Shown here piece after piece: positions 46,405 to 62,548 of a stretch of 64,000 nucleotides of DNA. A program made the translations under genes and the position numbers. This stretch comes from Nannocystales bacterium (lineage in GTDB: Bacteria; Myxococcota_A; Polyangia; Nannocystales; Nannocystaceae). The stretch covers positions 8,521 to 72,520 of the forward strand of contig JBOEGF010000036.1 of NCBI GenBank assembly GCA_050633305.1. The letters are read 5' to 3'. A model generated the notes under the pieces. That model made no database searches and had not been told where the DNA came from. It saw only the letters and a list, made by a program, of their open reading frames with translations. The stretch's first letter is position 1, and each line of letters starts with the position of its first letter.

Positions 46405-46656
46405 ATGACACCACTGAAAAAGATTCTCGGAACCCCACTGATCCACGCGGTGCTTGGGTTCATGTTCTTGGCCGCGTTCTCGTGGCCGATCTTCTCGTTC
46501 GAGGAGCCGATCAACACCTGGAAGTTCATGTATGGCGCCTGGGCGGTTGGCATCGGACTCCTGTTCCTCACCACGACGTTCGGAAGTGCGCCGGAGGCAG
46601 ACGAGATGGACGACGATGAAGACGTGGATGTGGAAGGCGTAGGCCAGAATGTTTAG
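46405..46656 (+). CDS. Small two-TM membrane protein translationally coupled to the sensor kinase
   Basis: It has two hydrophobic helices and an acidic tail. Its stop overlaps the kinase ATG by 8 nt. Confidence 0.6.
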   Translation: MTPLKKILGTPLIHAVLGFMFLAAFSWPIFSFEEPINTWKFMYGAWAVGIGLLFLTTTFGSAPEADEMDDDEDVDVEGVGQNV

Positions 46657-49600
46657 TCCATGGACAATTATTGGCGTGATCGTCGCCTATGTCGCGGTGC
46701 TGTTCGTCATCGCGCAATGGGCCGAACGATCCAAGGCCGGCAAATACGTCTCAAAGTACTCCGGCGTCTACGCCCTCGGACTGGCTGTCTACTGCACGAC
46801 CTGGACGTACTACGGTTCGGTTGGCAAGGCCTCGACGGGCGGGATGGGCTTCCTTCCCGTGTACTTGGGTCCCACGTTGGGGCTGCTGCTGGGGTGGACG
46901 ATCTTCAGGCGGATCGTTCGTCTCAAGCACGCTCACCGTATTACGAGTATCGCCGACTTTATCTCCAGCCGGTACGGGAAGTCGCAGGCGGTCGCCGCCA
47001 TGGTCACCGTCATCATGATGGTGGGAATTATTCCGTATGTTGGCCTGCAGCTGAAGGCCGTGACGGGGACCTTCGTGCAGATCACCGCGGGGTCGACCGA
47101 TGGCGCGGGGATGGCGGGTTGGTTCAGCCCGATCATCGCGACTTTGATGACGATCTTCACGATCGCTTTCGGTATTCGGCATATTGACCCCACCGAGCGT
47201 CACCCCGGGATGGTGGTGTCGCTGGCCATCGAGTCCACGTTCAAACTCGTCGCTTTCTTGGTCGCGGGCTTCTTCATCGTGAAGTCGGCGTTCGGCGGTC
47301 TCGGTGGCTTCGTCGAGTCCTTCACAGCCAATCCGCCCGATCTCCCGATGCTCAAGGCCGGGGACTCCAAGCAGATCATGGTGTGGATCACCGTGACGCT
47401 GTTGTCGATGTCGGCGTTCTCCTTCCTGCCTCGGCAGTTCCACGTCGGCGTGGTCGAGAACGGTGACCCCGAGCAAGTCAAGAAGGCTGCGTGGCTCACC
47501 CCGCTGTACCTCATCGCCATCAACCTTCTGGTGGTGCCCATTGCGATGGGCGGGTCGTTGCTGGCCGAGGCTGGTACGACCGGAGACCAGTTCGTGTTGG
47601 CCATTCCCGTGCAATCGGGCCAGGCTGCGCTGTCGTTGGGGGTGTTCATCGGCGGCTTCTCGGCTGCAATCGGCATGATCATGATCTCCAGCATGACGAT
47701 GGCGACCATGATCTCGAACCACCTGGTCATGCCTCTCATCTCAGCCGTGCCCGCGCTGTCGTTCCTGCGACGCCGTATGCTCTACGTGCGGTGGGTGGCT
47801 GCCGCTGGGTTCATCTTCGCCGGCTATGGCTTTGAGGTTGGGGTCGGCGACTCGTACATGTTGGTGGCCATTGGCCTGATCTCCTTCGCGGCTGCGTTCA
47901 TCGTGGCACCGGTTGTGCTCATCGGCCTGTTTTGGCGCAACGCCAGCCGTGGCGGCGCGTTGTTGGGCCTGGGATCCGGCTTCGTGTTCTGGGCGTACAC
48001 CCTGTTCATGCCCAGTCTGATCAAGAGTGGCTGGCTCCCCGAGAGCATCCTCGAACACGGCGCGTTCGGGCTGAGCGCCCTGCGACCCGAAGCTCTGTTC
48101 GGCCTCGCTGGTCTTCCCTCGCTGACCCACGGTGTGTTGTTCAGCGGCGTTGCCACCATCACGGGCCTGCTTGCGGGCAGTGTGCTCTTCCCGTCCAAGG
48201 GCGAAGAGCGGGCACTGACCGACGAGTTTCTCGACGAGGGCGAAGGGGGCTTCTCCCACCTCGATGACAAGAATCGCACCATCGATGTGGGAGAGAAGCG
48301 TGAGGCGACGCTGCGCGTTCTGGGGAAGTACTTCGACCACGCAGAGGCGGGCGAGATGTGCCAGACCTGTTTCCAAGAGGCGGGAGTGCAAGAGCAGGAG
48401 AAGCTCACGGTGGTCGAGATGGCCGAGCTTCACTCGACGATCGAGAAGCACCTCGCCGGTGCGGTGGGTGCAGCATCGGCGCACGGTGCGATGAAGGACT
48501 GGGGAACGATCGATCGTCAGGACTCCAAGTCGCTCGCTCGCTCGTACGGCAAGATGCTGGCCAAGCTCAAGCTCTCGCCGAAGGAACTCAAGGAGCGCAT
48601 CGACTTCCAGCAGGAGCGGGAATCCTTGCTCTCCGAGCAGTTCCGCGAGCTTCAGAAGAAGATCGACGAACGCGATGCAGAGATCGTCGAGCGACAGAAG
48701 GCCGAGGTCGCGCTTCAAGCCGCGCACGACGAGCTGGAAGACCGGGTCGAGCTACGCACGGCAGAGCTCAACAAGCGCAACAAAGAGATGCGCCTGGTGT
48801 TCGACACCGTGAACCAGGGCTTCATCACCATTGACCTCGAGGGTTCCATCGGAGCCGAGCGGTCGCGAGTCGTCTCCGAGTGGTTCGGCGTTCAAGATGG
48901 GCCCGTGCAGAGCAAGCTGCACGAGGTCCTGGCCGGGCTCGATGAGCGGACTGGGACGGCGCTGGAGATGGGCCTGGAGCAGGTCAAGATGGGCATCTTG
49001 CCGCTGGACGTCTCGCTGGATCAGTTGCCGACGGCTTTCGAGGCAGACGGCCGATACTACGAGGCGGACTACCACCCGACAGGAGAGATCGACGAGTCGA
49101 GTGATGAGTCGCCCGACAACCTCCTGGTCGTCGTTTCCGACGCCACCGCTCGGGTCCAGCAGGAGCGCTCCGAAGAGCGTCAGAAGGAAGTGGTCGGCTT
49201 GTTCGAACGCTTCATGAACGACCGCAACTCGGTTCTCTCCTTCCTCGGAGATGGTGACTCGCTGATCGAGCAGATCACCGCGTGGAGGGAGGGGGACGAG
49301 GACGTCCTCATTCGCCGCAACCTGCACACGCTCAAGGGCAACGCCGGCATCATGGCGGTGGGTAGCATCGCGCGGCTGTGCCACGCACTCGAGGAGCAGT
49401 TCGAGAATGGTGCGCTGTCCCCGGAGGACTCGGAGCGCTTGGCAAACGAATGGAAGAATCTCCGTGGTCGTATCGACGACATCGTCGACACCGAGACCGA
49501 CACCATCGAGCTGGAACCGCGCGACTACGACGCGATTCTCAAGGCGCTCAACACTGGACGCCCCGCGAAGGACATCGAGGCGCTCGTGCTCGGCTGGAAG

Positions 49601-50164
49601 CTCGAGCCCACGCGCAAGACCCTGAGTCGTCTCGGTGAGCAGGTCTCTCGTCTTGCCGAAGAACTCGGCAAGGGGGAGGTCGACGTTGTCGTCGAAGACA
49701 ACGACGTACGCCTGGATGCGGAGGAGTGGGGCGACTTCTGGTCCAATCTCGTGCACGTTGTACGAAACGCGGTCGACCATGGCCTGGAGGAGCCTTCCGA
49801 ACGCGAGAGCGCCGGGAAGAACCCCAATGGCAAGGTCACGCTTCGAACCGAGGACACGGTACAGGCTCTCACGGTGGTCATCGAAGACGATGGTCGCGGC
49901 ATCAACTGGGATGCGCTGCGCAAGAAATGCAAGACGCATGGCCTTCCGTACGAGACGCAGAGCGACCTCGTCGAGGCGCTGTTCGCCGATGGTGTCTCCA
50001 CCCGGGACGAGGTCTCGACAACCTCGGGACGCGGCGTCGGCATGGCGGCTGTCCGGGGCGATACCGAAGCCCGTGGTGGCTCGGTCAAGGTCGACAGCCG
50101 GCCCGGCAAGGGCACACGCTGGACGTTCCGCTTCCCCAAGGCGGCGCCTGCGAAGGTCGCGTAG
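46649..50164 (+). CDS. Sensor kinase: sodium/solute-symporter (SLC5)-like membrane domain, coiled coil, PAS-like domain, HPt and CheA-type HATPase
   Basis: The N-terminal ~500 aa form a multi-helix SSS-like domain. The HPt signature is RRNLHTLKGNAG (His codon at 49325-49327). The CheA-type catalytic boxes are VRNAVDHGLE, EDDGRGI and SGRGVGM. I recognise no HisKA, REC or CheW-like domain. Confidence 0.8.
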   Translation: MFSPWTIIGVIVAYVAVLFVIAQWAERSKAGKYVSKYSGVYALGLAVYCTTWTYYGSVGKASTGGMGFLPVYLGPTLGLLLGWTIFRRIVRLKHAHRITSIADFISSRYGKSQAVAAMVTVIMMVGIIPYVGLQLKAVTGTFVQITAGSTDGAGMAGWFSPIIATLMTIFTIAFGIRHIDPTERHPGMVVSLAIESTFKLVAFLVAGFFIVKSAFGGLGGFVESFTANPPDLPMLKAGDSKQIMVWITVTLLSMSAFSFLPRQFHVGVVENGDPEQVKKAAWLTPLYLIAINLLVVPIAMGGSLLAEAGTTGDQFVLAIPVQSGQAALSLGVFIGGFSAAIGMIMISSMTMATMISNHLVMPLISAVPALSFLRRRMLYVRWVAAAGFIFAGYGFEVGVGDSYMLVAIGLISFAAAFIVAPVVLIGLFWRNASRGGALLGLGSGFVFWAYTLFMPSLIKSGWLPESILEHGAFGLSALRPEALFGLAGLPSLTHGVLFSGVATITGLLAGSVLFPSKGEERALTDEFLDEGEGGFSHLDDKNRTIDVGEKREATLRVLGKYFDHAEAGEMCQTCFQEAGVQEQEKLTVVEMAELHSTIEKHLAGAVGAASAHGAMKDWGTIDRQDSKSLARSYGKMLAKLKLSPKELKERIDFQQERESLLSEQFRELQKKIDERDAEIVERQKAEVALQAAHDELEDRVELRTAELNKRNKEMRLVFDTVNQGFITIDLEGSIGAERSRVVSEWFGVQDGPVQSKLHEVLAGLDERTGTALEMGLEQVKMGILPLDVSLDQLPTAFEADGRYYEADYHPTGEIDESSDESPDNLLVVVSDATARVQQERSEERQKEVVGLFERFMNDRNSVLSFLGDGDSLIEQITAWREGDEDVLIRRNLHTLKGNAGIMAVGSIARLCHALEEQFENGALSPEDSERLANEWKNLRGRIDDIVDTETDTIELEPRDYDAILKALNTGRPAKDIEALVLGWKLEPTRKTLSRLGEQVSRLAEELGKGEVDVVVEDNDVRLDAEEWGDFWSNLVHVVRNAVDHGLEEPSERESAGKNPNGKVTLRTEDTVQALTVVIEDDGRGINWDALRKKCKTHGLPYETQSDLVEALFADGVSTRDEVSTTSGRGVGMAAVRGDTEARGGSVKVDSRPGKGTRWTFRFPKAAPAKVA

Positions 50165-54368: not shown

Positions 54369-55508
54369 CTACTTACACGTGCAGACCTGCACGCCGCGTG
54401 CGAGCTGCCATCCACCGGGACCGTCGACCAGATGGACGGGCTGCTTCGGTCGCGAAGCTGCTCGGCAAAGCGTGCAAACCCTGTTCGCACCTGAGAGATA
54501 GGTCGCGCCTGGCCGCTTCCGGTAGTTGCCATCGCTGCGGACCCATTGTGGATCGAGGCCCGAAGGAAGACTGGCCGCGATCACGCCGTAGGCCGCCGCG
54601 TTTGTCTCTGCGCCGTGGTGAGGTGCTGTCACCAGGGGCGTACGTGTGGCCGGCACGGAGCGCAACGAGGCCAGGTCGGAGTCCGCGCTGAAGATGACGG
54701 CTGAGTTGTTTGGGTCCTCGGGGGCCACGAAGACCAGGGACTCCCGGTTCGCGACGCTCAGCCGAAGGAATCGCAGCGCACTGACCTTGCGGCGAAGCAT
54801 GTGCGCTGTCAGCTCGACGGAGTTGATCGGGTGAAGGAATGCCTCGCCGCCCGCGGGCGTTCCGCGCCGTCGCGCTTCCTCGAAGTCGAACCACCTAATT
54901 CTCGCGCCATGGTGATGAGCGGCTCTCGCGACCTTGCGGATCCGTGCGGCCGCCTGCACCGCCTCAATCCACAGGGCCCCTCGTGCGCTCCCAACGAGAT
55001 CGGTCGACGGAAGCCAGACGCCGTCTGCAAGCCCGTCTAGGATGTCCGGTGCCAGGGGATCCTCCAAACCGAGCGCCGCTTCAACCCCATCGAGGTCAAC
55101 GTCTACGTCCTCCCCGCGTTCCGACCCCTCGCGGGCGTCGGGCGACTCCAGGGAGCCCGCCTCCTGCTCGGCGCGCACGTCCGTGAGCAGTTCGTCGAGG
55201 AAGTCTGCCGGCCGGACGATGAGATCTACAAGGCGCTCTGTCCACCGCCCGGGGAGCCACACGTCGCGGACCACTGCAAGGGAGGCCTCTAGCAGCCCGA
55301 CAAGACCCTCGGCGTGATCGGCATCGGCATGCGTGCACACGGCCACGTCGATCGCGGGCGTGGGCCGCACCAACATCAGTTGGGCCGCGAACACCGTGCG
55401 CGCGCGACCGCCATCCACGAGTATCGTCTTGCCGTCCGCGCGTTCGAGCAGGAACGCATCCCCTTGGCCCACTGGGACTGCCGTGAACGTGGCGACCACG
55501 TGCGGCAT
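54369..55508 (-). CDS. MBL-fold metallo-hydrolase (ComEC-C-terminal-like)
   Basis: Has VPVGQGDAFLLERADGKTILVDGG and VCTHADADHAEGL (HxDxDH variant), with a later TAPHHG. ATG 55508 lies inside listed ORF 54369..55604. Confidence 0.7.
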   Translation of the reverse strand: MPHVVATFTAVPVGQGDAFLLERADGKTILVDGGRARTVFAAQLMLVRPTPAIDVAVCTHADADHAEGLVGLLEASLAVVRDVWLPGRWTERLVDLIVRPADFLDELLTDVRAEQEAGSLESPDAREGSERGEDVDVDLDGVEAALGLEDPLAPDILDGLADGVWLPSTDLVGSARGALWIEAVQAAARIRKVARAAHHHGARIRWFDFEEARRRGTPAGGEAFLHPINSVELTAHMLRRKVSALRFLRLSVANRESLVFVAPEDPNNSAVIFSADSDLASLRSVPATRTPLVTAPHHGAETNAAAYGVIAASLPSGLDPQWVRSDGNYRKRPGATYLSGANRVCTLCRAASRPKQPVHLVDGPGGWQLARGVQVCTCK

Positions 55509-55557
55509 CGTACAGATTGACGGATGCCAATTGGAGTCGGGCTTGGTATCGGCTGCC

Positions 55558-56274
55558 GTGAGGGTGTTCGTCCAGTATCCTGGGAGGGTGACGCTTCCGC
55601 CCAAATTCTTGGAGGCCGACTTCGACCTACTCGGATCCCTGCTGGAGTTCGACGTCGAGCGGAGGTTCGGACGTAAGGTTCAGGTCCTGCATGCCTTCCT
55701 GAACAACGACTCGGTCGTTCGCACGGCCCACCAGCAGCGCCGCGAATGGAAGTCGCGGGCGAAGCCGGACCGGGCCTTCGAGAACCTCGGCTCGGAAGCT
55801 CGCCACTGGTACACATTCAACGCGGGTGGTCGGACCGAGGCACAGCTCAACGTCGGGATGTTCGGCGGCAGGGATGGGCACCTCCGAATCGGGCTTGGCT
55901 TCGAGATGACCGAAAGAAAGGGCGGGCGGCCCGCGGCCGTCCAGTTCATCTTTGCGGCCTTCGTCAAGCTGCTGAAGGAGCGGACCGAGCTCGTGCACAA
56001 CGTCTCGCACTTCGTGGAGGAGATGGGCCTCGAGGTCGAGTTCTGGGGACCATCGTCAACCGAACTCGAGATCGTCGGGACGTCCGACGCGCTTCGGTTT
56101 ATCACCAGCCTGACCAGGACGGCGCACTGGGTCTTCTTGGGCAAGCTCCTGCGCCTCGACACCGATGCGGCGGTTCTTGCAGAGCCGGCCGACCTGGCCT
56201 CGGCGATCGACGACGTGTTCCGGGGCATCCTGCCGATCTGGCGGGAAGCCAACGTTGTGGGCTCGTTGGGGTAG
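55558..56274 (+). CDS. Hypothetical protein divergent from the MBL gene (start uncertain, GTG/TTG candidates 55531-55609)
   Basis: The composition is coding-like from about 55590 (FLEADFDLLGSLLEFD ... WYTFNAGGRTEAQLNVGMF ... LRIGLGFE). No family recognised. Confidence 0.5.
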   Translation: MRVFVQYPGRVTLPPKFLEADFDLLGSLLEFDVERRFGRKVQVLHAFLNNDSVVRTAHQQRREWKSRAKPDRAFENLGSEARHWYTFNAGGRTEAQLNVGMFGGRDGHLRIGLGFEMTERKGGRPAAVQFIFAAFVKLLKERTELVHNVSHFVEEMGLEVEFWGPSSTELEIVGTSDALRFITSLTRTAHWVFLGKLLRLDTDAAVLAEPADLASAIDDVFRGILPIWREANVVGSLG

Positions 56275-57042: not shown

Positions 57043-58350
57043 CTAGTCAGTCGGCGCTGGCTGGAGTGTCCTGCCATCAAGATCCAGGTACAGCTGCGCC
57101 GCGTCGTAGGGGCAACGTCGGGTGCCTCGGATCGTCCAAGGTTCGCGCATGCAGGTCTCGGCTCGTTGAGGCGCATCGCAGCAGGAGTACAGCGGGCACA
57201 TCCAGCGAGCGGCTTCCTCCGATCGAAGCGACTGAACCAGGTGCGCCATCGAGCGAATGAGAAAAACCGCCTGCTCGCCCGGGGTCTCACGCCCTCCGGC
57301 AAAGACCTGCCCCTGGGCGTCCTCCATCGACGGCAAGGGAACCTCCTCGAAGAGCGGCCTGACGTCCAAGGATTGCTCCGGCGATTCGGGATCTGGCAAC
57401 CGGTCCAGCGGGAACCGGCGCTCGCCGTTTCGGTTGCGCGCCAGGCTCAGGAGGGCGATCTCCTGGTACCATCTTAGGGCGACCAGGAGTGGGTCCTCGT
57501 CGCCTGCAGCGGCGTGGTGCTCGACGAACTCTTTCAGTGTCGCAGTGATCTGCGCCACCGTCCGATCGTAGGTCGCTGCTAGCGTGTGTCTCCGGCACCA
57601 GTCATAGACCTCCTCTCCCGACGGGTCTGTGCTGTTTTGGCCCATGTCGGAGAAACCATCCAGCAAGTTGAAGAGGTGCGGCCCTGGGGTCGGGTGTTGG
57701 AGGGCCCAATGGCACATTGCGATACGTTGCCGTGGGGTGTGGAGCCCGACCGTCGCCAAGATCCGATCAATCGCGACGTACTCGAACGACGTCGATTCCA
57801 GGACGGGCTCGTCGTCGGCGAACAGCACCTGCAGCGCAACGGAGTACGCCTCCTTGATCTCCCAGGGGCCTACGCTGTGATGCATGATCTCGCCAGAGAT
57901 ATTGTCGACGAACTTTGCCTTGGCCACCATCACTGGCTGCGACTCGGCGTCGATCGTCGCAGCTTCAAGGCAGTAGCCCTCGTAGGCCCACGGCGTCCCA
58001 CTGCCCCAGGTCTCCCGGGGTTCCACCGCACGCCGAAGTCGAGGCTGAGCGAAGTACCATGGGTCATCTATGGCGGATGGATCGTCTGTCAGTGGGAGCG
58101 TCACCGCCTCCCCCATGTGCCGAACTGCGCGCTTCGTCGCGTGGACCGAGTCGAGGAAATGAATGAAGTCGATCGCCCCGTACACCGAGCACAAGTCCTG
58201 CAAGAGGTGACCGTACTCGTGCATGAACGTCCACAGACCGTGGGGAAGAGGCTGTCCCGTATCTGGGTCCAGCACATCCTCGCGAAACCATATGTAGAAC
58301 GCGCTCGGCCGGTAGTAGGAGCGCCCTGAGCTATCGTGGCGGATTGGCAT
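57043..58350 (-). CDS. Hypothetical HExxH protein (putative Zn metallopeptidase) with a Cys-rich C-terminus
   Basis: Has GLWTFMHEYGHLLQD near the N-terminus. The C-terminus has CPLYSCCD...C...C. The ATG is at 58350. Confidence 0.55.
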   Translation of the reverse strand: MPIRHDSSGRSYYRPSAFYIWFREDVLDPDTGQPLPHGLWTFMHEYGHLLQDLCSVYGAIDFIHFLDSVHATKRAVRHMGEAVTLPLTDDPSAIDDPWYFAQPRLRRAVEPRETWGSGTPWAYEGYCLEAATIDAESQPVMVAKAKFVDNISGEIMHHSVGPWEIKEAYSVALQVLFADDEPVLESTSFEYVAIDRILATVGLHTPRQRIAMCHWALQHPTPGPHLFNLLDGFSDMGQNSTDPSGEEVYDWCRRHTLAATYDRTVAQITATLKEFVEHHAAAGDEDPLLVALRWYQEIALLSLARNRNGERRFPLDRLPDPESPEQSLDVRPLFEEVPLPSMEDAQGQVFAGGRETPGEQAVFLIRSMAHLVQSLRSEEAARWMCPLYSCCDAPQRAETCMREPWTIRGTRRCPYDAAQLYLDLDGRTLQPAPTD

Positions 58351-58591
58351 CGTTCGACCTGTGACTGTGTTCGCGCACCCGCTGCACGCGGCGCGAGTCT
58401 CCAAGATACGCGAGGCGGGCCCCTTCATTCGCTATGTGGACCAGAATGGGCCGTTGGCCTGATATTGATCGGTCAGGCCCGCTCTCCAGCACATGGCGGC
58501 CTTCAGCAGCGTCAGCCTGGTTTGTTGGCAATGAGCGACGTTGGAGGCGCTCTGGCCCGGTTCAGCGTATCCTTCGCTCCTGCACTCGCTG

Positions 58592-59416
58592 ATGGACACG
58601 ACAAATCTCCATTCCGAGCTCGAAGTGGTTCTTCGCGCTGGCACCCACCAGCTCGTCTTCATTGACGACGGTGGAGCCGGGCACCACACTATGGACCCCG
58701 ATATCCTTGTTCAGGACCATCTTAGTTTCACCGCGGTCATTGTCCCAGCGTGCTCCTTTATCCCGTTGAACGACGCCTTCGTTTCGTGGCTGTCCGAGGT
58801 GCAGAAGGACGCCCCGTCCGTCACCGAGCTTCATGCCACAGCACTCATCAACCCGAAGCGCGGCCAGCCTTGGCGGGACGTCAAGGATGTGGACGTGCGA
58901 GCCGGGCATCTCCGGCGCGCCGCCGACGTTTTCCTCCCCCATGTGGAGACCGTCATTCACGCCCACATCGGCAAGGAGCAGTACGAATCTCTCCTTGCCT
59001 CGCATGCCGAGCAGGTGGATGGCCTCTACGACCATGTCAAGAAGGACCTCACGAAACACAAACATGGCCTCGAACTCGTGACGCTGCAGGCGGTCGCAAA
59101 GCACGTGCAGAAGCGCGGGGTTCCTTCCGTAGTATTCGAGGATGAGGGGCGCTACAGGGTGAAGAACAAGGACGAATGCACGGTGAAGTTCATGTTCGAT
59201 CCCGTCGTTCCGATGTGGAGAGGTGCTGTTGTCTACCAGCCTTCGCACGCGTGGCCAGGGCTGCAGGTCGCAGACATGCTGGCAGTTGCATTCGCGCGCG
59301 AGTACGTCACCGCTCAACGGGTGCGGATTGGCAAGCACCCTCTCCCTTTCGATCGTGTTTGCAAGCGAATCCGCGAGCAGGTCGCCGAGAAGAAAGTCTT
59401 CGCCTTCGACGCCTGA
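58592..59416 (+). CDS. DUF3800-like protein
   Basis: The N-terminal LVFIDDGG and C-terminal GLQVADMLAVAF match the two signature ends of DUF3800. ATG 58592 lies in an AT-richer patch. Confidence 0.55.
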   Translation: MDTTNLHSELEVVLRAGTHQLVFIDDGGAGHHTMDPDILVQDHLSFTAVIVPACSFIPLNDAFVSWLSEVQKDAPSVTELHATALINPKRGQPWRDVKDVDVRAGHLRRAADVFLPHVETVIHAHIGKEQYESLLASHAEQVDGLYDHVKKDLTKHKHGLELVTLQAVAKHVQKRGVPSVVFEDEGRYRVKNKDECTVKFMFDPVVPMWRGAVVYQPSHAWPGLQVADMLAVAFAREYVTAQRVRIGKHPLPFDRVCKRIREQVAEKKVFAFDA

Positions 59417-59687
59417 TGTGTGGACACGCGGCCTGCCACTTTCCGTTCTGGGCGCAGAGCGCCCGGATGCCGGTCCGAGATTGGGGCGGTCGCGGAGAAG
59501 GCCCGGGCGGTGCGAGCGCGTGCCCGTGTTGCCGGCCGAGTTCGTCTTGGCAATCTGCGGCTTGTCGATCTTGACGGTCCTGCGTGGGGATGGATATCTT
59601 GGCACCGTAACGCCCGTTGTACGTTTGCCTTGGCGGCATGTGCTCTTAGGCGGCCGCTCCATGAGCATCGGGAGTTTGTGAGGGCAG

Positions 59688-60455
59688 ATGGGCCACATCC
59701 GGCTTGGGAAACTTCCACGCACGAGACGCTGGGCAGAGGTCGTCGACCTCTTGGGCCTCGGTGCGGGCTCCGCTGCGGTCGCCGCCGCCACCCTCGACGC
59801 GGCCGAAGCGGACCTACGCGGCGCCCCTGAAGACCCCGCTGTCCTTCACGCTTTCTGGCTGCTGACGCAGCTCCCTGACGCGGCGCGTAGCAGCGACTTT
59901 GCCGGCGCACTTCGTGACATCGGGGTCCAGGTCGAGAGCGCGCCCACGGTCGCCGAGCTCGGCGCCGCGCTTACCCGGGCCATCGACCGGCACGCGCTCC
60001 AACAGCGCAACATGTCCGACCTCGGCGAGATGGCACAGCTTGCTGTCGTCCAGAGCCTGACGGGTCTGCTGCAAGCCCGCGTGCCGACGCTCTTCGGGAC
60101 TACGCCCGACGACGTGCGCTCGGAGGTCGCCAAGCTCGCGACCGGAAAACAGTTTGGGATGCTCGCCAAGGAGTTCTTCGCCGGCTTCTCGCAGCGGTTC
60201 CTCACCTACTACACCAGCCGCGAGCTGCCCTCCCACGTCGGACGGGGCCGAGCGTTCCCGGAGCTGACGGACCACGAAGCGTTCAACCAGGCGCTCGACA
60301 TCCATTGTCAGCAGGCGTCGCGGATCGTCGAGACCTTCGCGGGCACCTGGTACTCGAAGAGCCGATACGAGAAGACGCTAACTCCCGAGCGCATGGCGGG
60401 GTTTGTCGGGTACGCGCTGGGCAAGATGCGGCGCGAGCTGAGGCGGGGGGGCTGA
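59688..60455 (+). CDS. Hypothetical 255-aa protein, partner of the QueC-like enzyme (QatB-like position and size)
   Basis: The ATG is preceded by GAGGG. The N-terminus is MGHIRLGKLPRTRRW. Its stop TGA overlaps the ATG of the next gene (TGATG at 60453-60457). Confidence 0.65.
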   Translation: MGHIRLGKLPRTRRWAEVVDLLGLGAGSAAVAAATLDAAEADLRGAPEDPAVLHAFWLLTQLPDAARSSDFAGALRDIGVQVESAPTVAELGAALTRAIDRHALQQRNMSDLGEMAQLAVVQSLTGLLQARVPTLFGTTPDDVRSEVAKLATGKQFGMLAKEFFAGFSQRFLTYYTSRELPSHVGRGRAFPELTDHEAFNQALDIHCQQASRIVETFAGTWYSKSRYEKTLTPERMAGFVGYALGKMRRELRRGG

Positions 60456-62548
60456 TGTCGTCGTCCCTGCCTCGGAGTGTGCGTCACGTCGCCTGTGGGA
60501 GCGCCGCTCGCAGCGCCCCCGAGGATGCGCTGCGCCTGAAGCTCCACGGGACGTCGCCGAGCTTCAGCGTCGACGTCGCGGGCCTCGACCAACAGCTGAC
60601 GACTCGTGTCGCCCCGCGCTTCAGGGATCTCATCCGCCTCGCGTCCTACGTCCTCGTCGCAGACCAGGCGGTCACCCGTGGGGAAGAGGACTCCCTCGAC
60701 CTGGGGAAGCGCTGGCGCCGCGAGTTCAAGTTCGTCGTCGGCGTCGAGGACCTCAACGTTTGGGACTGCGACGAGATGCGCGACGTTCTCGAGTCGACGC
60801 TGCATACCCTCACCGACGACTTCTACACGTTCGAGTTCGTGCCGCAGCTCGACTCCGAGCCTGAGCAGCTCAACTTCGGCGCCGTGGGCGACGACCCCTT
60901 CCTCCCCCTCGAAGGCTTCGCGTCGGTGCAGCTGTTCTCCGGTGGGATGGACTCGTTCACGGGGGCGGCCGAGGAGATCCTGGGCAGCGATCGAGACGTC
61001 ATCCTCGTGAGTCACCGGTCGGCGACCAAGACTTGGAAGCTTCAGCGGGACCTGATCGACGACCTCCGCCAGCGAGCTCCGTCGCGCCGCATCCTCCACG
61101 TCGCTGTGAGCATGGTGAAGCATGCGAAGGAGCTTCGCCGCGAGCGAACCCAGCGGTCGAGGTCGTTCCTGTACGCCGCCCTGGCGGGGACGGTGGCCAA
61201 CCTGGTGGGCCTCGACTTCATCCGATTCTACGAGAACGGGATCGTCGGCATGAACCTCCCTGTGCTACCGCAAGTCATCGGCACGCGGGCGACGAGGACA
61301 ACCCATCCGGAGGTGCTGCGGGGCTTCTCAAAGATCCTCTCGCTCCTTGGCTCCCAGAGTATGCGGGTCGAGAACCCGTTCGAGTTCTTGAGCCGCGCCG
61401 AGGTGGCCGGGCGGTTGAACGGCGCCGGTGCCATCGACGTGCTGAGCAAGACCGTCAGCTGCGCGCACGTGCACAAGAGCAGCAAGATGCATCCGCACTG
61501 CGGCGTCTGCTCCCAGTGCGTGGACCGGCGCATCTCAATGCTGGCGGCCGGATTCGCCGAGCATGACCCTGCCGAAGGCTACGCTGTGGACATCCTCCGC
61601 GGTCAGCATCCCACGGGCGAGGGCGACGTCCTGACCGAGCGCGACCGCACGATGATTGTCGGATACGTCCACGCCGCTGACCGCTTCCGAGACCTCGCTT
61701 CGCCACTCGAGCTTCAGCACCGGTATCCCGAGGTCACCCGAGCGCTACTCGGCCTGACCGAGCGCTATGTCATCGACGCCGATGAGGCGCTCCGGCGTGT
61801 CTACGAGGTGCACAAGCGCCACGGTGATGGCGTCGGTAGGGCCGTCGAAACGCTCTTCGACTCGGACACGGTCAGGGCGCTGCGGAAGCCGAACGGCATC
61901 CCTGCTGACAGCCTCCCCGCGCTCTTGGGTGCGCGCGGCCTTGGCATGTCCGGATCCCATCAGCAGAAAGAGGAGGTGGCTCTAGAGATCGTGCCGGCAG
62001 ATGCCGAGCATGTCTTCCGCCGGCAGGGGCAGAACTGGACGCTCAAGTACCGGGGCGGCAAGCCGCTGATCATGAAGCACACGAAGGGGCTGAACTACAT
62101 CAGCTTCCTGTTCCGGCACCCGAGTGAGGAGCTGACTGCGTTCGCGCTGATCGACCTAGACGAGGGGCGTGAGGTCGGCCGGCACTCGCTGTCTACGTCG
62201 TTCTCGATCGACGCGAAGACGCTCAGCTCGGTGAAAGGCAAGATGCGGGAGCTCAAGTCCGCCCTCGCCGACGCGATCGAGTACTGCGACGACGCCGGAG
62301 CCGCTCGCATCCGGGCTGAGATCGAGACGCTTGAGGACTACGTGAGTCGGGAGACCGGGCTCGGGGGAAAGGTCCGGCGGGAGTCGCCGGACCGGAAGAG
62401 GGCGAGATCGTCGGTGTCCAATGCCATTACGCGCGCTATCGGCACGGTGCGCAAAGAGCACCCAGCCTTCGCCGACTACCTAAAGCGGCAGATCCAGACC
62501 GGGTTCTTTCTCCAGTATCGCGACGTCAGCACCCACTGGCTGTTGTAA
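60455..62548 (+). CDS. QueC-like PP-loop ATPase (QatC/Cap9-like) with a ~160-aa N-terminal and a ~270-aa C-terminal extension
   Basis: The PP-loop is LFSGGMDSFTGA (SGGMDS at 60938-60955). Has RTQRSRSFLY and the Zn-type cluster CAHV...HCGVCSQCVDRR. The C-terminal segment is FRRQGQNWTLKYRGGKPLIMKHTKGLNYISFLFRHP. Confidence 0.8.
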   Translation: MSSSLPRSVRHVACGSAARSAPEDALRLKLHGTSPSFSVDVAGLDQQLTTRVAPRFRDLIRLASYVLVADQAVTRGEEDSLDLGKRWRREFKFVVGVEDLNVWDCDEMRDVLESTLHTLTDDFYTFEFVPQLDSEPEQLNFGAVGDDPFLPLEGFASVQLFSGGMDSFTGAAEEILGSDRDVILVSHRSATKTWKLQRDLIDDLRQRAPSRRILHVAVSMVKHAKELRRERTQRSRSFLYAALAGTVANLVGLDFIRFYENGIVGMNLPVLPQVIGTRATRTTHPEVLRGFSKILSLLGSQSMRVENPFEFLSRAEVAGRLNGAGAIDVLSKTVSCAHVHKSSKMHPHCGVCSQCVDRRISMLAAGFAEHDPAEGYAVDILRGQHPTGEGDVLTERDRTMIVGYVHAADRFRDLASPLELQHRYPEVTRALLGLTERYVIDADEALRRVYEVHKRHGDGVGRAVETLFDSDTVRALRKPNGIPADSLPALLGARGLGMSGSHQQKEEVALEIVPADAEHVFRRQGQNWTLKYRGGKPLIMKHTKGLNYISFLFRHPSEELTAFALIDLDEGREVGRHSLSTSFSIDAKTLSSVKGKMRELKSALADAIEYCDDAGAARIRAEIETLEDYVSRETGLGGKVRRESPDRKRARSSVSNAITRAIGTVRKEHPAFADYLKRQIQTGFFLQYRDVSTHWLL

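Follow-up and report, generated by a model that had tools for sequence, protein, structure and literature searches.

A two-gene unit of a Nannocystales bacterium as a probable, as yet uncatalogued variant of phage-defence systems that tag the first glycine of a partner protein

This study analyzed a 64,000-nucleotide stretch of DNA from a Nannocystales bacterium (NCBI GenBank assembly GCA_050633305.1, contig JBOEGF010000036.1, positions 8,521 to 72,520 of the forward strand; hereafter, the window) and concerned a pair of overlapping open reading frames near its end, ORF1 and ORF2. Some phage-defence systems chemically tag the first glycine of a partner protein, and the pair is probably a variant of these that has not yet been catalogued. 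By analogy with QatB and QatC of the four-gene QatABCD system, we propose, at a rough probability of 0.6, that the two genes constitute a QatBC-like immune module that would modify Gly2 of ORF1 and that carries a built-in DNA-binding-like module in the place of separate accessory proteins. The two genes and their junction are as follows.

59688-60455 (+): ORF1, all-helical partner protein and predicted substrate, of a family without annotation (540 homologues, none with a Pfam domain)
60455-62548 (+): ORF2, long QatC-like enzyme of 697 amino acids (aa), identified from the list of open reading frames, PADLOC, NCBIfam, the PDB sequence search, and homologues
60453-60457 (+): TGATG overlap of the ORF1 stop and the ORF2 start, read from the sequence

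ORF1 encodes 255 aa with the N-terminus MGHIRLGKLPRTRRW, and ORF2 starts at the ATG within TGATG, an arrangement indicating translational coupling of the two genes. The parts of ORF2 that identify it as an enzyme are listed below.

60455-60904 (+): QatC-type N-terminal extension, residues 1-150 (D58, DQAVTR...WRR, DFYTFEF), which aligns to Pseudomonas aeruginosa QatC (9zee_B) from residue 57
60905-61534 (+): QueC-fold catalytic core, residues 151-360 (PP-loop, H187, RSRSFLY, TRTTHP, and Zn cluster)
60938-60955 (+): PP-loop SGGMDS, S162-S167, read from the sequence
61292-61309 (+): TRTTHP (T280-R-T282-T-H-P), from the QatC alignment and a motif check
61460-61519 (+): Zn cluster C336/C349/C352/C355, CAHV...HCGVCSQCVDRR, from the sequence and the alignment

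Judged from its sequence, ORF2 is a bona fide QatC-type PP-loop enzyme between residues ~55 and 375. The PADLOC model of QatC matched residues 55-374 (5.2e-51), and the PDB sequence search returned the solved QatC structures 9zee_B (1.6e-27) and 9vlk_A (6e-26). The NCBIfam QatC model matched at 2.4e-56 with 191.4 bits, which is under the equivalog cutoff of 280 bits for NF041925. In the alignment with P. aeruginosa QatC, S156/D160/S161 corresponded to S162/D166/S167 of ORF2, H180 to H187, R233/F237 to R236/Y240, and T278/T280 to T280/T282 within TRTTHP, and the four Zn cysteines corresponded to C336, C349, C352, and C355. The importance of these P. aeruginosa residues was shown by Gao et al. 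(PMC13279940). Across the ORF2 family, the catalytic residues S162/D166/S167, H187, R236, and Y240 were invariant or nearly so. The QatC motifs defined by Libby et al. (D63; D(x)4R...WxR; Dx[WY]xxxF; RxRxxx[FY]; and a Thr pair with HP, TRTTHP; PMC13329287) were represented in ORF2 by D58, DQAVTR...WRR (with four extra residues), DFYTFEF, RSRSFLY, and TRTTHP. The QatC motif P(x)4TK reads P(x)4SR in ORF2, and the Zn site is spaced C(x)12C, compared with the C(x)19CGxCxxC pattern of QatC. ORF2 also contains the stretch FRRQGQNWTLKY....

The signatures of biosynthetic QueC were lacking. The motif check found none of YxQxHxxE, VPxRN, and YPDC in ORF2, the QueC model TIGR00364 scored 16.9 bits against a cutoff of 150, and the Pfam QueC model gave a weak hit (25.7 bits) restricted to the Zn-binding end. 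The preliminary description of this locus had proposed a QueC-like defence enzyme, and the PADLOC match (5.2e-51) placed ORF2 with QatC rather than among biosynthetic QueC enzymes or in a different PP-loop family. The same description had counted about 160 aa before the PP-loop as an extra region; in the alignment this part, from residue 55-57 onward, proved to be the standard N-terminal extension of QatC. A hidden Markov model (HMM) of the ORF2 family scored canonical QatC at 167-178 bits, over positions 44-389 only, whereas every family member scored at least 523 bits. On these scores, the ORF2 family forms a clade apart from canonical QatC.

The second line of evidence is the N-terminus of the partner.

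59688-59741 (+): N-terminal tail motif of ORF1, MGHIRLGKLPRTRRWAEV, with Gly2 as the predicted acceptor and L9, P10, and W15 as a conserved anchor (from column counts)

The N-terminal peptide of ORF1 is GHIRLGKLPRTRRW, and the tail consensus of its family is MGH[IV]RLGxLP[RK][TS][RK]xW. Among 73 distinct partners, G2 was present in all 73, H3 in 70, R5 in 62, L6 in 68, G7 in 67, L9 and P10 in 68 each, W15 in 71, and V18 in 69. The first 18 residues were thus nearly fixed in a family in which overall identity drops to ~47%. In an AlphaFold2 (AF2) model of ORF1 with a predicted local distance difference test (pLDDT) score of 88.4, residues 1-12 were unstructured and were followed by 12 helices, the first from residue 13.

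A Met-Gly start of this type has been assigned a function in related systems. Papers of 2025-2026 identified Gly2 of both QatB and CD-NTase as a modification site (PMC13279940, PMC13639016), and Cap9 deazaguanylates Gly2 of the CD-NTase (10.1101/2025.04.06.647259). G2 and a Pro/Trp segment of QatB are essential, and the QatB tail lies in the QatC pocket (PMC13279940, PMC13639016), where crystal structures place the QatB N-terminus (PMC13639016). An NDG-modified GTSKAY peptide of QatB has been detected by liquid chromatography-tandem mass spectrometry (PMC13639016). QatBC alone protects against some phages, and the QatB substitution G2D abolishes defence (PMC13279940). The earlier suggestion that the Met-Gly of ORF1 is a candidate modification site is thus strongly backed, both by the invariance of Gly2 in the 73 distinct partners and by the papers on the sister systems. 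Gly2 modification is an established mechanism in those systems, and by analogy the ORF1 family fits it very well.

The starts of two QatB genes in RefSeq were observed to lie too far downstream, at L081:4210-4962 (204 instead of 250 aa) and L082:3829-4818 (216 instead of 329 aa). The functional MGTS N-terminus is cut off in both because the starts are misplaced, and the same misannotation was reported by Gao et al. (PMC13279940).

ORF1 had also been described as the QatB-like member of the pair. Its position, size, helical nature, and Met-Gly start agree with this description, whereas no homology to QatB could be detected. PADLOC and the PDB, the latter searched both by sequence and with a profile of 40 family sequences, returned no QatB match. 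Against an alignment of 20 true QatB sequences, recovered through annotated plasmids, hhalign gave a probability of 0.6%, and hmmsearch --max gave negative bit scores. The family PF28083 was precomputed on QatB relatives and on no ORF1 relatives. These precomputed annotations were used in place of the local Pfam copy, which lacks PF28083 and left canonical QatB unmatched too; a negative for ORF1 from that copy is therefore uninformative alone. A Foldseek search of the ORF1 model against the PDB and BFVD returned nothing below E 0.18, with a PDB library (to 2026-04-08) that probably predates the QatB entries. On the basis of the negative PADLOC, PDB sequence and profile, hhalign, and hmmsearch --max results, we rejected ORF1 as a detectable QatB homologue. 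The two proteins differ further in isoelectric point (pI 8.8 for ORF1 and 4.9 for QatB). In the alignment, the canonical QatB tail begins MGTS and continues with conserved P15, L16, and W20, so that the distance from the anchor to Gly2 differs from that in ORF1.

To characterize the pair as a unit, we surveyed the 80 best genome loci retrieved by means of the ORF2 family. In 77 of the 80, the gene directly preceding the enzyme gene, and adjoining or overlapping its start, was of the ORF1 family, which bears out the expectation that the pair would be conserved elsewhere. The exceptions were two loci with the enzyme gene less than ~450 bp from a contig end and one (L030) without a detectable partner. 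The pairwise distances of the two proteins were correlated (r = 0.89), as expected for a co-inherited pair; shared phylogeny contributes to this value. No conserved third gene was found across the 80 loci. Relatives of ORF2, canonical QatC included, were present in at least 578 species-representative genomes. The 80 loci derived from Myxococcota, Planctomycetota, Verrucomicrobiota, Pseudomonadota, Desulfobacterota, Acidobacteriota, Zixibacteria, Deferribacteres, Binatia, and Krumholzibacteriia, and a Leptospira plasmid added Spirochaetota. The ORF2 family occurs in at least 10 phyla, with culturable strains among them; Zavarzinella formosa DSM 19928, Comamonas phosphati CGMCC 1.12294, and Mizugakiibacter sediminis skMP5 are, with the plasmid of Leptospira noguchii, candidate sources of orthologues.

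Both genes are real and not chance reading frames, because the G+C content at third codon positions (GC3) was 0.84 in each, in a genome of 66% G+C, and each had more than 500 full-length homologues. The ATG at 59688, with its Met-Gly, is the only possible start of ORF1 because an in-frame TGA lies at 59679-59681. For ORF2, the list of open reading frames offered a start at TTG 60305 (747 aa); it was rejected on the grounds that the homologues and an identical database protein begin at ATG 60455. This database protein, P0121 from a Nannocystales metagenome-assembled genome, showed 100% identity to ORF2 across 697 aa. Both reading frames, the TGATG overlap, SGGMDS, RTQRSRSFLY, the Cys cluster, and the FRRQGQNW stretch were all recovered where the preliminary description had placed them. 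The window contained no second copy of ORF1, ORF2, or the C-terminal module. Two candidate expression signals precede the pair.

59680-59684 (+): putative ribosome-binding site GAGGG, 3 nt 5' of the ORF1 start, read from the sequence
59571-59600 (+): weak candidate for a sigma-70-like promoter (TTGACG, 18 nt, TATCTT), from a consensus scan that gave 1 site against 0.3 expected

The remainder of ORF2 departs from canonical QatC and comprises two regions.

61535-61978 (+): family-specific helical middle region, residues 361-508, with Y376, A408, R455, and H456 conserved in the family
61979-62545 (+): C-terminal module, residues 509-697, pI 9.5, AF2 pLDDT 91.8

An added C-terminal domain had been noted after the Zn cluster. 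ORF2 does depart from QatC after about residue 375; the separable added module, however, is confined to residues 509-697. Residues 361-508 could not be aligned to canonical QatC and occupy the place of its QatB-binding C-terminal extension, and this region likely binds ORF1. Modelled separately, and with confidence, by AF2, the module opens with a small beta/alpha unit (three strands, two helices), continues into a long helical hairpin, and ends with additional helices and a terminal strand. The top 18 Foldseek hits of the module were DNA-binding domains of the OmpR/PhoB/ToxR/GlnR type, at E values of 0.26-1.4, none of which is significant. No match to the C-terminus of ORF2 was found in Pfam, NCBIfam, PADLOC, or PHROGs, and a profile search of the PDB gave only coiled-coil and UVR-like noise. 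The first ~60 residues of the module share the strands-then-helices order of the OmpR/PhoB/SARP winged helix (Trans_reg_C), and the pattern KGLxYLxxLLxxPG ... I.TG..C.Y resembles winged-helix sequence. The module differs from that domain in that no sequence or fold match is significant and in that a helical hairpin of ~70 residues is inserted.

A search of 1.84 billion cluster representatives identified relatives of the module in 8142 of them (E <= 1e-3). They were almost always C-terminal, and some were stand-alone proteins of ~190 aa. A Pfam scan of 61 carriers revealed AAA_16/AAA_22 with TPR (STAND NTPases), guanylate cyclase, receiver, GAF, hydrolase, nSTAND3/5, and NACHT domains, and such domain partners are expected for a DNA-binding output domain. 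Proteins P0361-P0507 are among the carriers.

Within the survey, the module was present in 70 of the 80 loci. In four others (L072, L073, L074, and L076), it was replaced by a domain ending ...RQQIRRLRKxL...W.GYRLNP, which by eye is of the OmpR type; among these, Pfam Trans_reg_C matched L072 only, weakly (E 0.002) and under the gathering score. A metagenomic relative carried a bSEFIR/TIR domain (PADLOC 6e-43) in the slot of the module, with the MGH partner still upstream. In canonical QatC itself, a fusion to TatD was found on the Bradyrhizobium ottawaense plasmid pBoOM27 (L082:4815-6947, 710 aa, TatD_DNase 1e-46 at 469-706). These exchanges and the TatD fusion mark the C-terminus of QatC-type enzymes as a slot for output domains. 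As in ORF2, the C-terminus of QatC on pBoOM27 serves as a natural fusion point for another domain of the system; pBoOM27 differs in carrying a canonical QatA/QatB/QatC set in which the fused domain is the QatD nuclease, whereas the module of ORF2 looks non-catalytic. For ORF2, DNA binding is the most likely output, at about even odds.

Other arrangements of the C-terminus were also observed. The QatC-TatD (QatD) fusion of L082 is annotated simply as qatC. A plasmid of Leptospira noguchii (L088:3914-5779) encodes a 621-aa QatC-like enzyme with the partner MGHERLGILPKTRSW and a different C-terminus. A PD-(D/E)xK nuclease, read by eye in this C-terminus (..IPDH..LIVESKY..), was supported by neither the PDB sequence search nor PADLOC and was discarded. 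On the contig of an 87%-identical ORF2 orthologue (L001:1683-3980), a 765-aa protein upstream of the pair carried the same module (E 1e-53) behind an N-terminal part of 585 aa without a known family; it has no equivalent in the window. The sharing of one module by two neighboring genes may reflect a homotypic interaction, or a second system may have been built around it.

From these comparisons, we infer a complex of the two proteins, a reaction with its substrate, binding of DNA by the module, and protection against phage, and we propose the following mechanism. The N-terminal 375 residues of ORF2 would act, by analogy with Cap9 and QatC, as an ATP-dependent ligase that activates a carboxylate, most likely 7-carboxy-7-deazaguanine. 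Once Met1 of ORF1 had been removed, the alpha-amine of Gly2 would receive the activated group. The ORF1 tail (G2, L9, P10, and W15) would thread into the active site of ORF2, while the helical body of ORF1 would dock on residues 361-508. The module at residues 509-697 would position the complex on DNA or regulate it there, a task that falls to separate proteins in the four-gene system; in relatives, an effector (bSEFIR/TIR) occupies this slot instead. QatA has been reported to bind DNA (PMC13279940), and the substitution of the C-terminal module for QatA and QatD is plausible for this reason.

Several observations weigh against this proposal. The status of ORF1 as a substrate rests on analogy because ORF1 shows no QatB homology. 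Its tail before the first helix is ~12 residues long, compared with 30-90 in QatB, and the docking geometry must therefore differ. The QatC reaction itself has not been reconstituted in vitro, and QatB modification has been seen only at a low level (PMC13279940, PMC13639016). DNA binding by the module relies on the non-significant Foldseek hits, the weak Pfam hit of L072, and the logic of domain architecture, and Pfam finds nothing in the C-terminus of ORF2 itself. A search 5' of the operon for operator-like repeats, in the window and four relatives, found chance-level repeats only. The defence role follows from guilt by association with the neighboring genes described below.

We weighed four alternatives to the proposed Gly2-modifying immune module. 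The one that survives best, which we consider unlikely, is that ORF2 is a transcription factor with a winged-helix output: its QatC-like domain would detect or modify either ORF1 or a ligand, and the protein would control genes of the mobile element or island that carries it. This explanation draws on the occurrence of the module in receiver, GAF, cyclase, and AAA_16/TPR signalling proteins, which is typical of DNA-binding outputs, on the OmpR-type C-termini of some relatives (by eye, with one weak Pfam hit), and on the frequent proximity of the pair to recombinases. However, the 80 loci offered no conserved third gene to control, no operator-like repeats lay upstream, the catalytic residues are strictly conserved, and the module is replaced in relatives by bSEFIR/TIR, an effector of immunity as opposed to a regulator.

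Somewhat less probable again is that the enzyme, tethered by its module, acts on a nucleic acid or small molecule, such as a 7-deazaguanine base in DNA, with ORF1 as an accessory or effector. The native substrates of QueC-family enzymes are deazapurine bases, the module weakly resembles a winged helix, and the pocket of QatC, whose reaction has resisted reconstitution in vitro, has Thr/Thr in place of the Tyr/Asp of QueC and Cap9 (PMC13279940). Such a substrate would nevertheless explain neither the translational coupling nor a Met-Gly tail that hardly varies, no DpdA/TGT-like transglycosylase gene was found nearby, and the crystal structures locate the N-terminus of QatB inside the pocket of QatC (PMC13639016).

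A decayed qatABCD operon, without its former qatA and qatD, would account for QatC being the best named match of ORF2, yet it is effectively refuted by the intact two-gene layout in 77 of 80 genomes from many phyla, by a partner family different from QatB, by the family HMM scores (167-178 bits for canonical QatC versus at least 523 for members), and by two intact frames with a GC3 of 0.84. Least probable of all is a biosynthetic QueC paralogue (queuosine/preQ0), for which the Pfam hit at the Zn-binding end is outweighed by the TIGR00364 score, the absence of the three QueC motifs, the lack of an adjacent queD or queE, and the failure of Escherichia coli QatC to complement a queC deletion (PMC13329287).

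Among known systems, the QatBC core of QatABCD is the closest to the pair proposed here. ORF2 shares its N-terminal extension, the PP-loop, the pocket with Thr-x-Thr, and the Zn site with QatC (structures 9ZEE/9ZEF and 9VLK/9VLL; QatBC 9WVJ/9X6C; PMC13639016). In both cases, a helical partner of ~250 aa is encoded directly upstream and is translationally coupled; it begins with Met-Gly, and a conserved Pro/Trp anchor follows a few residues later, at a distance from Gly2 that differs between the two. A self-sufficient two-gene unit is plausible here because QatBC protects alone against lambda-vir. The differences are that ORF1 is not detectably homologous to QatB, is basic, and begins with MGH and not MGTS on a tail of 12 and not 30-90 residues; that ORF2 has another post-Zn region, an added module of 189 aa, C(x)12C and not C(x)19C spacing, and a score below the NCBIfam cutoff; and that neither QatA nor QatD is present at the locus. 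Cap9 of type IV CBASS likewise combines a QueC-family ligase with a Gly2-acceptor partner in defence, a role that is inferred for ORF1 and ORF2. Unlike ORF2, Cap9 is minimal in size, at ~185 aa, with the Tyr/Asp pocket of QueC retained and a nucleotidyltransferase as its substrate. It also needs Cap10 (TGT-like) and a signalling effector, neither of which was found by PADLOC or Pfam beside ORF1 and ORF2.

No description of the pair was found in the literature searched, and PADLOC 2023 and NCBIfam 2026 contain neither an ORF1 model nor the family. The family is also outside the 2026 survey of Qat systems, in which 98% of the clusters were four-gene operons (PMC13434339). The pair introduces no new principle. 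The chances are evenly balanced that it represents a third widespread class of QueC-family modifiers of N-terminal glycines, after type IV CBASS (Cap9) and QatABCD, with a non-QatB substrate that has an invariant tail of its own and with interchangeable fused outputs, in most cases the DNA-binding-like module and occasionally bSEFIR/TIR. If so, nucleobase tagging of Gly2 would be a general and portable immune switch, and the compact two-protein version may be easier than QatBC to reconstitute in vitro. An independent lineage with the same core and an unrelated, short-tailed substrate would single out Gly2, the Pro/Trp anchor, and the Thr-x-Thr pocket as the essentials; by the same comparison, the fold of the partner, QatA, QatD, and the C-terminal output domain would be interchangeable. 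The pair thus bears on what QatC does and on how the modified partner stops phage. The analysis also exposed a very large family of C-terminal modules, without a Pfam hit, on STAND NTPases and signalling proteins.

The pair and the end of the window lie in a defence island. Beyond the window, the same contig carries small genes without a known family, followed by Avs2, an antiviral STAND protein of 1389 aa (L083:12109-16278, PADLOC 2e-259), ~3.5 kb past the ORF2 stop, and then by an AAA_15/SMC-like gene. A 348-aa gene with a weak hit to PDC-M14A comes before Avs2, and the AAA_15/SMC_N-like gene (1081 aa) is on the opposite strand. Among the reading frames from 50 kb to the window end and 10 kb beyond, PADLOC and Pfam gave no hit for QatA (KAP NTPase), QatD (TatD), TGT, or CD-NTase; the earlier report that no qatA, qatD, TGT, or CD-NTase gene lies nearby thus holds for ~10 kb on either side. 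The G+C content was ~0.62-0.63 at 46-50, 57-60, and 62-64 kb, compared with ~0.66 elsewhere in the window, and no tRNA genes were found in the window.

At the other loci, a PADLOC scan of 108 random non-redundant neighbors, made without a background control, identified BrxL, GajB, PLD-helicase, and ZorD/DpdE/DrmD-like helicases, with two members each, a result supportive of a defence role. Within 10 kb of the pair, a large serine recombinase was present in 32 of the 80 loci, DUF2924 in 27, and a tyrosine integrase in 12; ParB-like and AAA_24 genes were other recurrent neighbors. Because recombinases and integrases recur in this manner, the pair appears to be carried on integrative or mobile elements. 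Examples with both the serine recombinase and DUF2924 are L010:6200-8504 and L002:18608-21399, alongside 25-30 further loci.

The following genes of the window precede the pair.

46649-50164 (+): 1171 aa, by eye with an N-terminal multi-pass membrane region like that of solute symporters and a C-terminal histidine-kinase ATPase (..DDGRGI..GRGVGM..)
54369-55604 (-): 411 aa, with an N-terminal MBL fold like the nuclease heads of DRT-associated RTasMBL, LmuA, and Avs1a (PADLOC 8e-10 to 1e-8)
57043-58428 (-): 461 aa, without a match in any library
58541-59416 (+): DUF3800 protein, directly upstream of the pair

The 1171-aa gene marks the ordinary chromosomal flank before the island, and the 411-aa MBL-fold protein may be another defence effector. 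A Rhizobium rhizogenes plasmid (L087) likewise carries a DUF3800 gene in the neighborhood of a QatC-like pair, beside a phage-exclusion gene of the Lit family.

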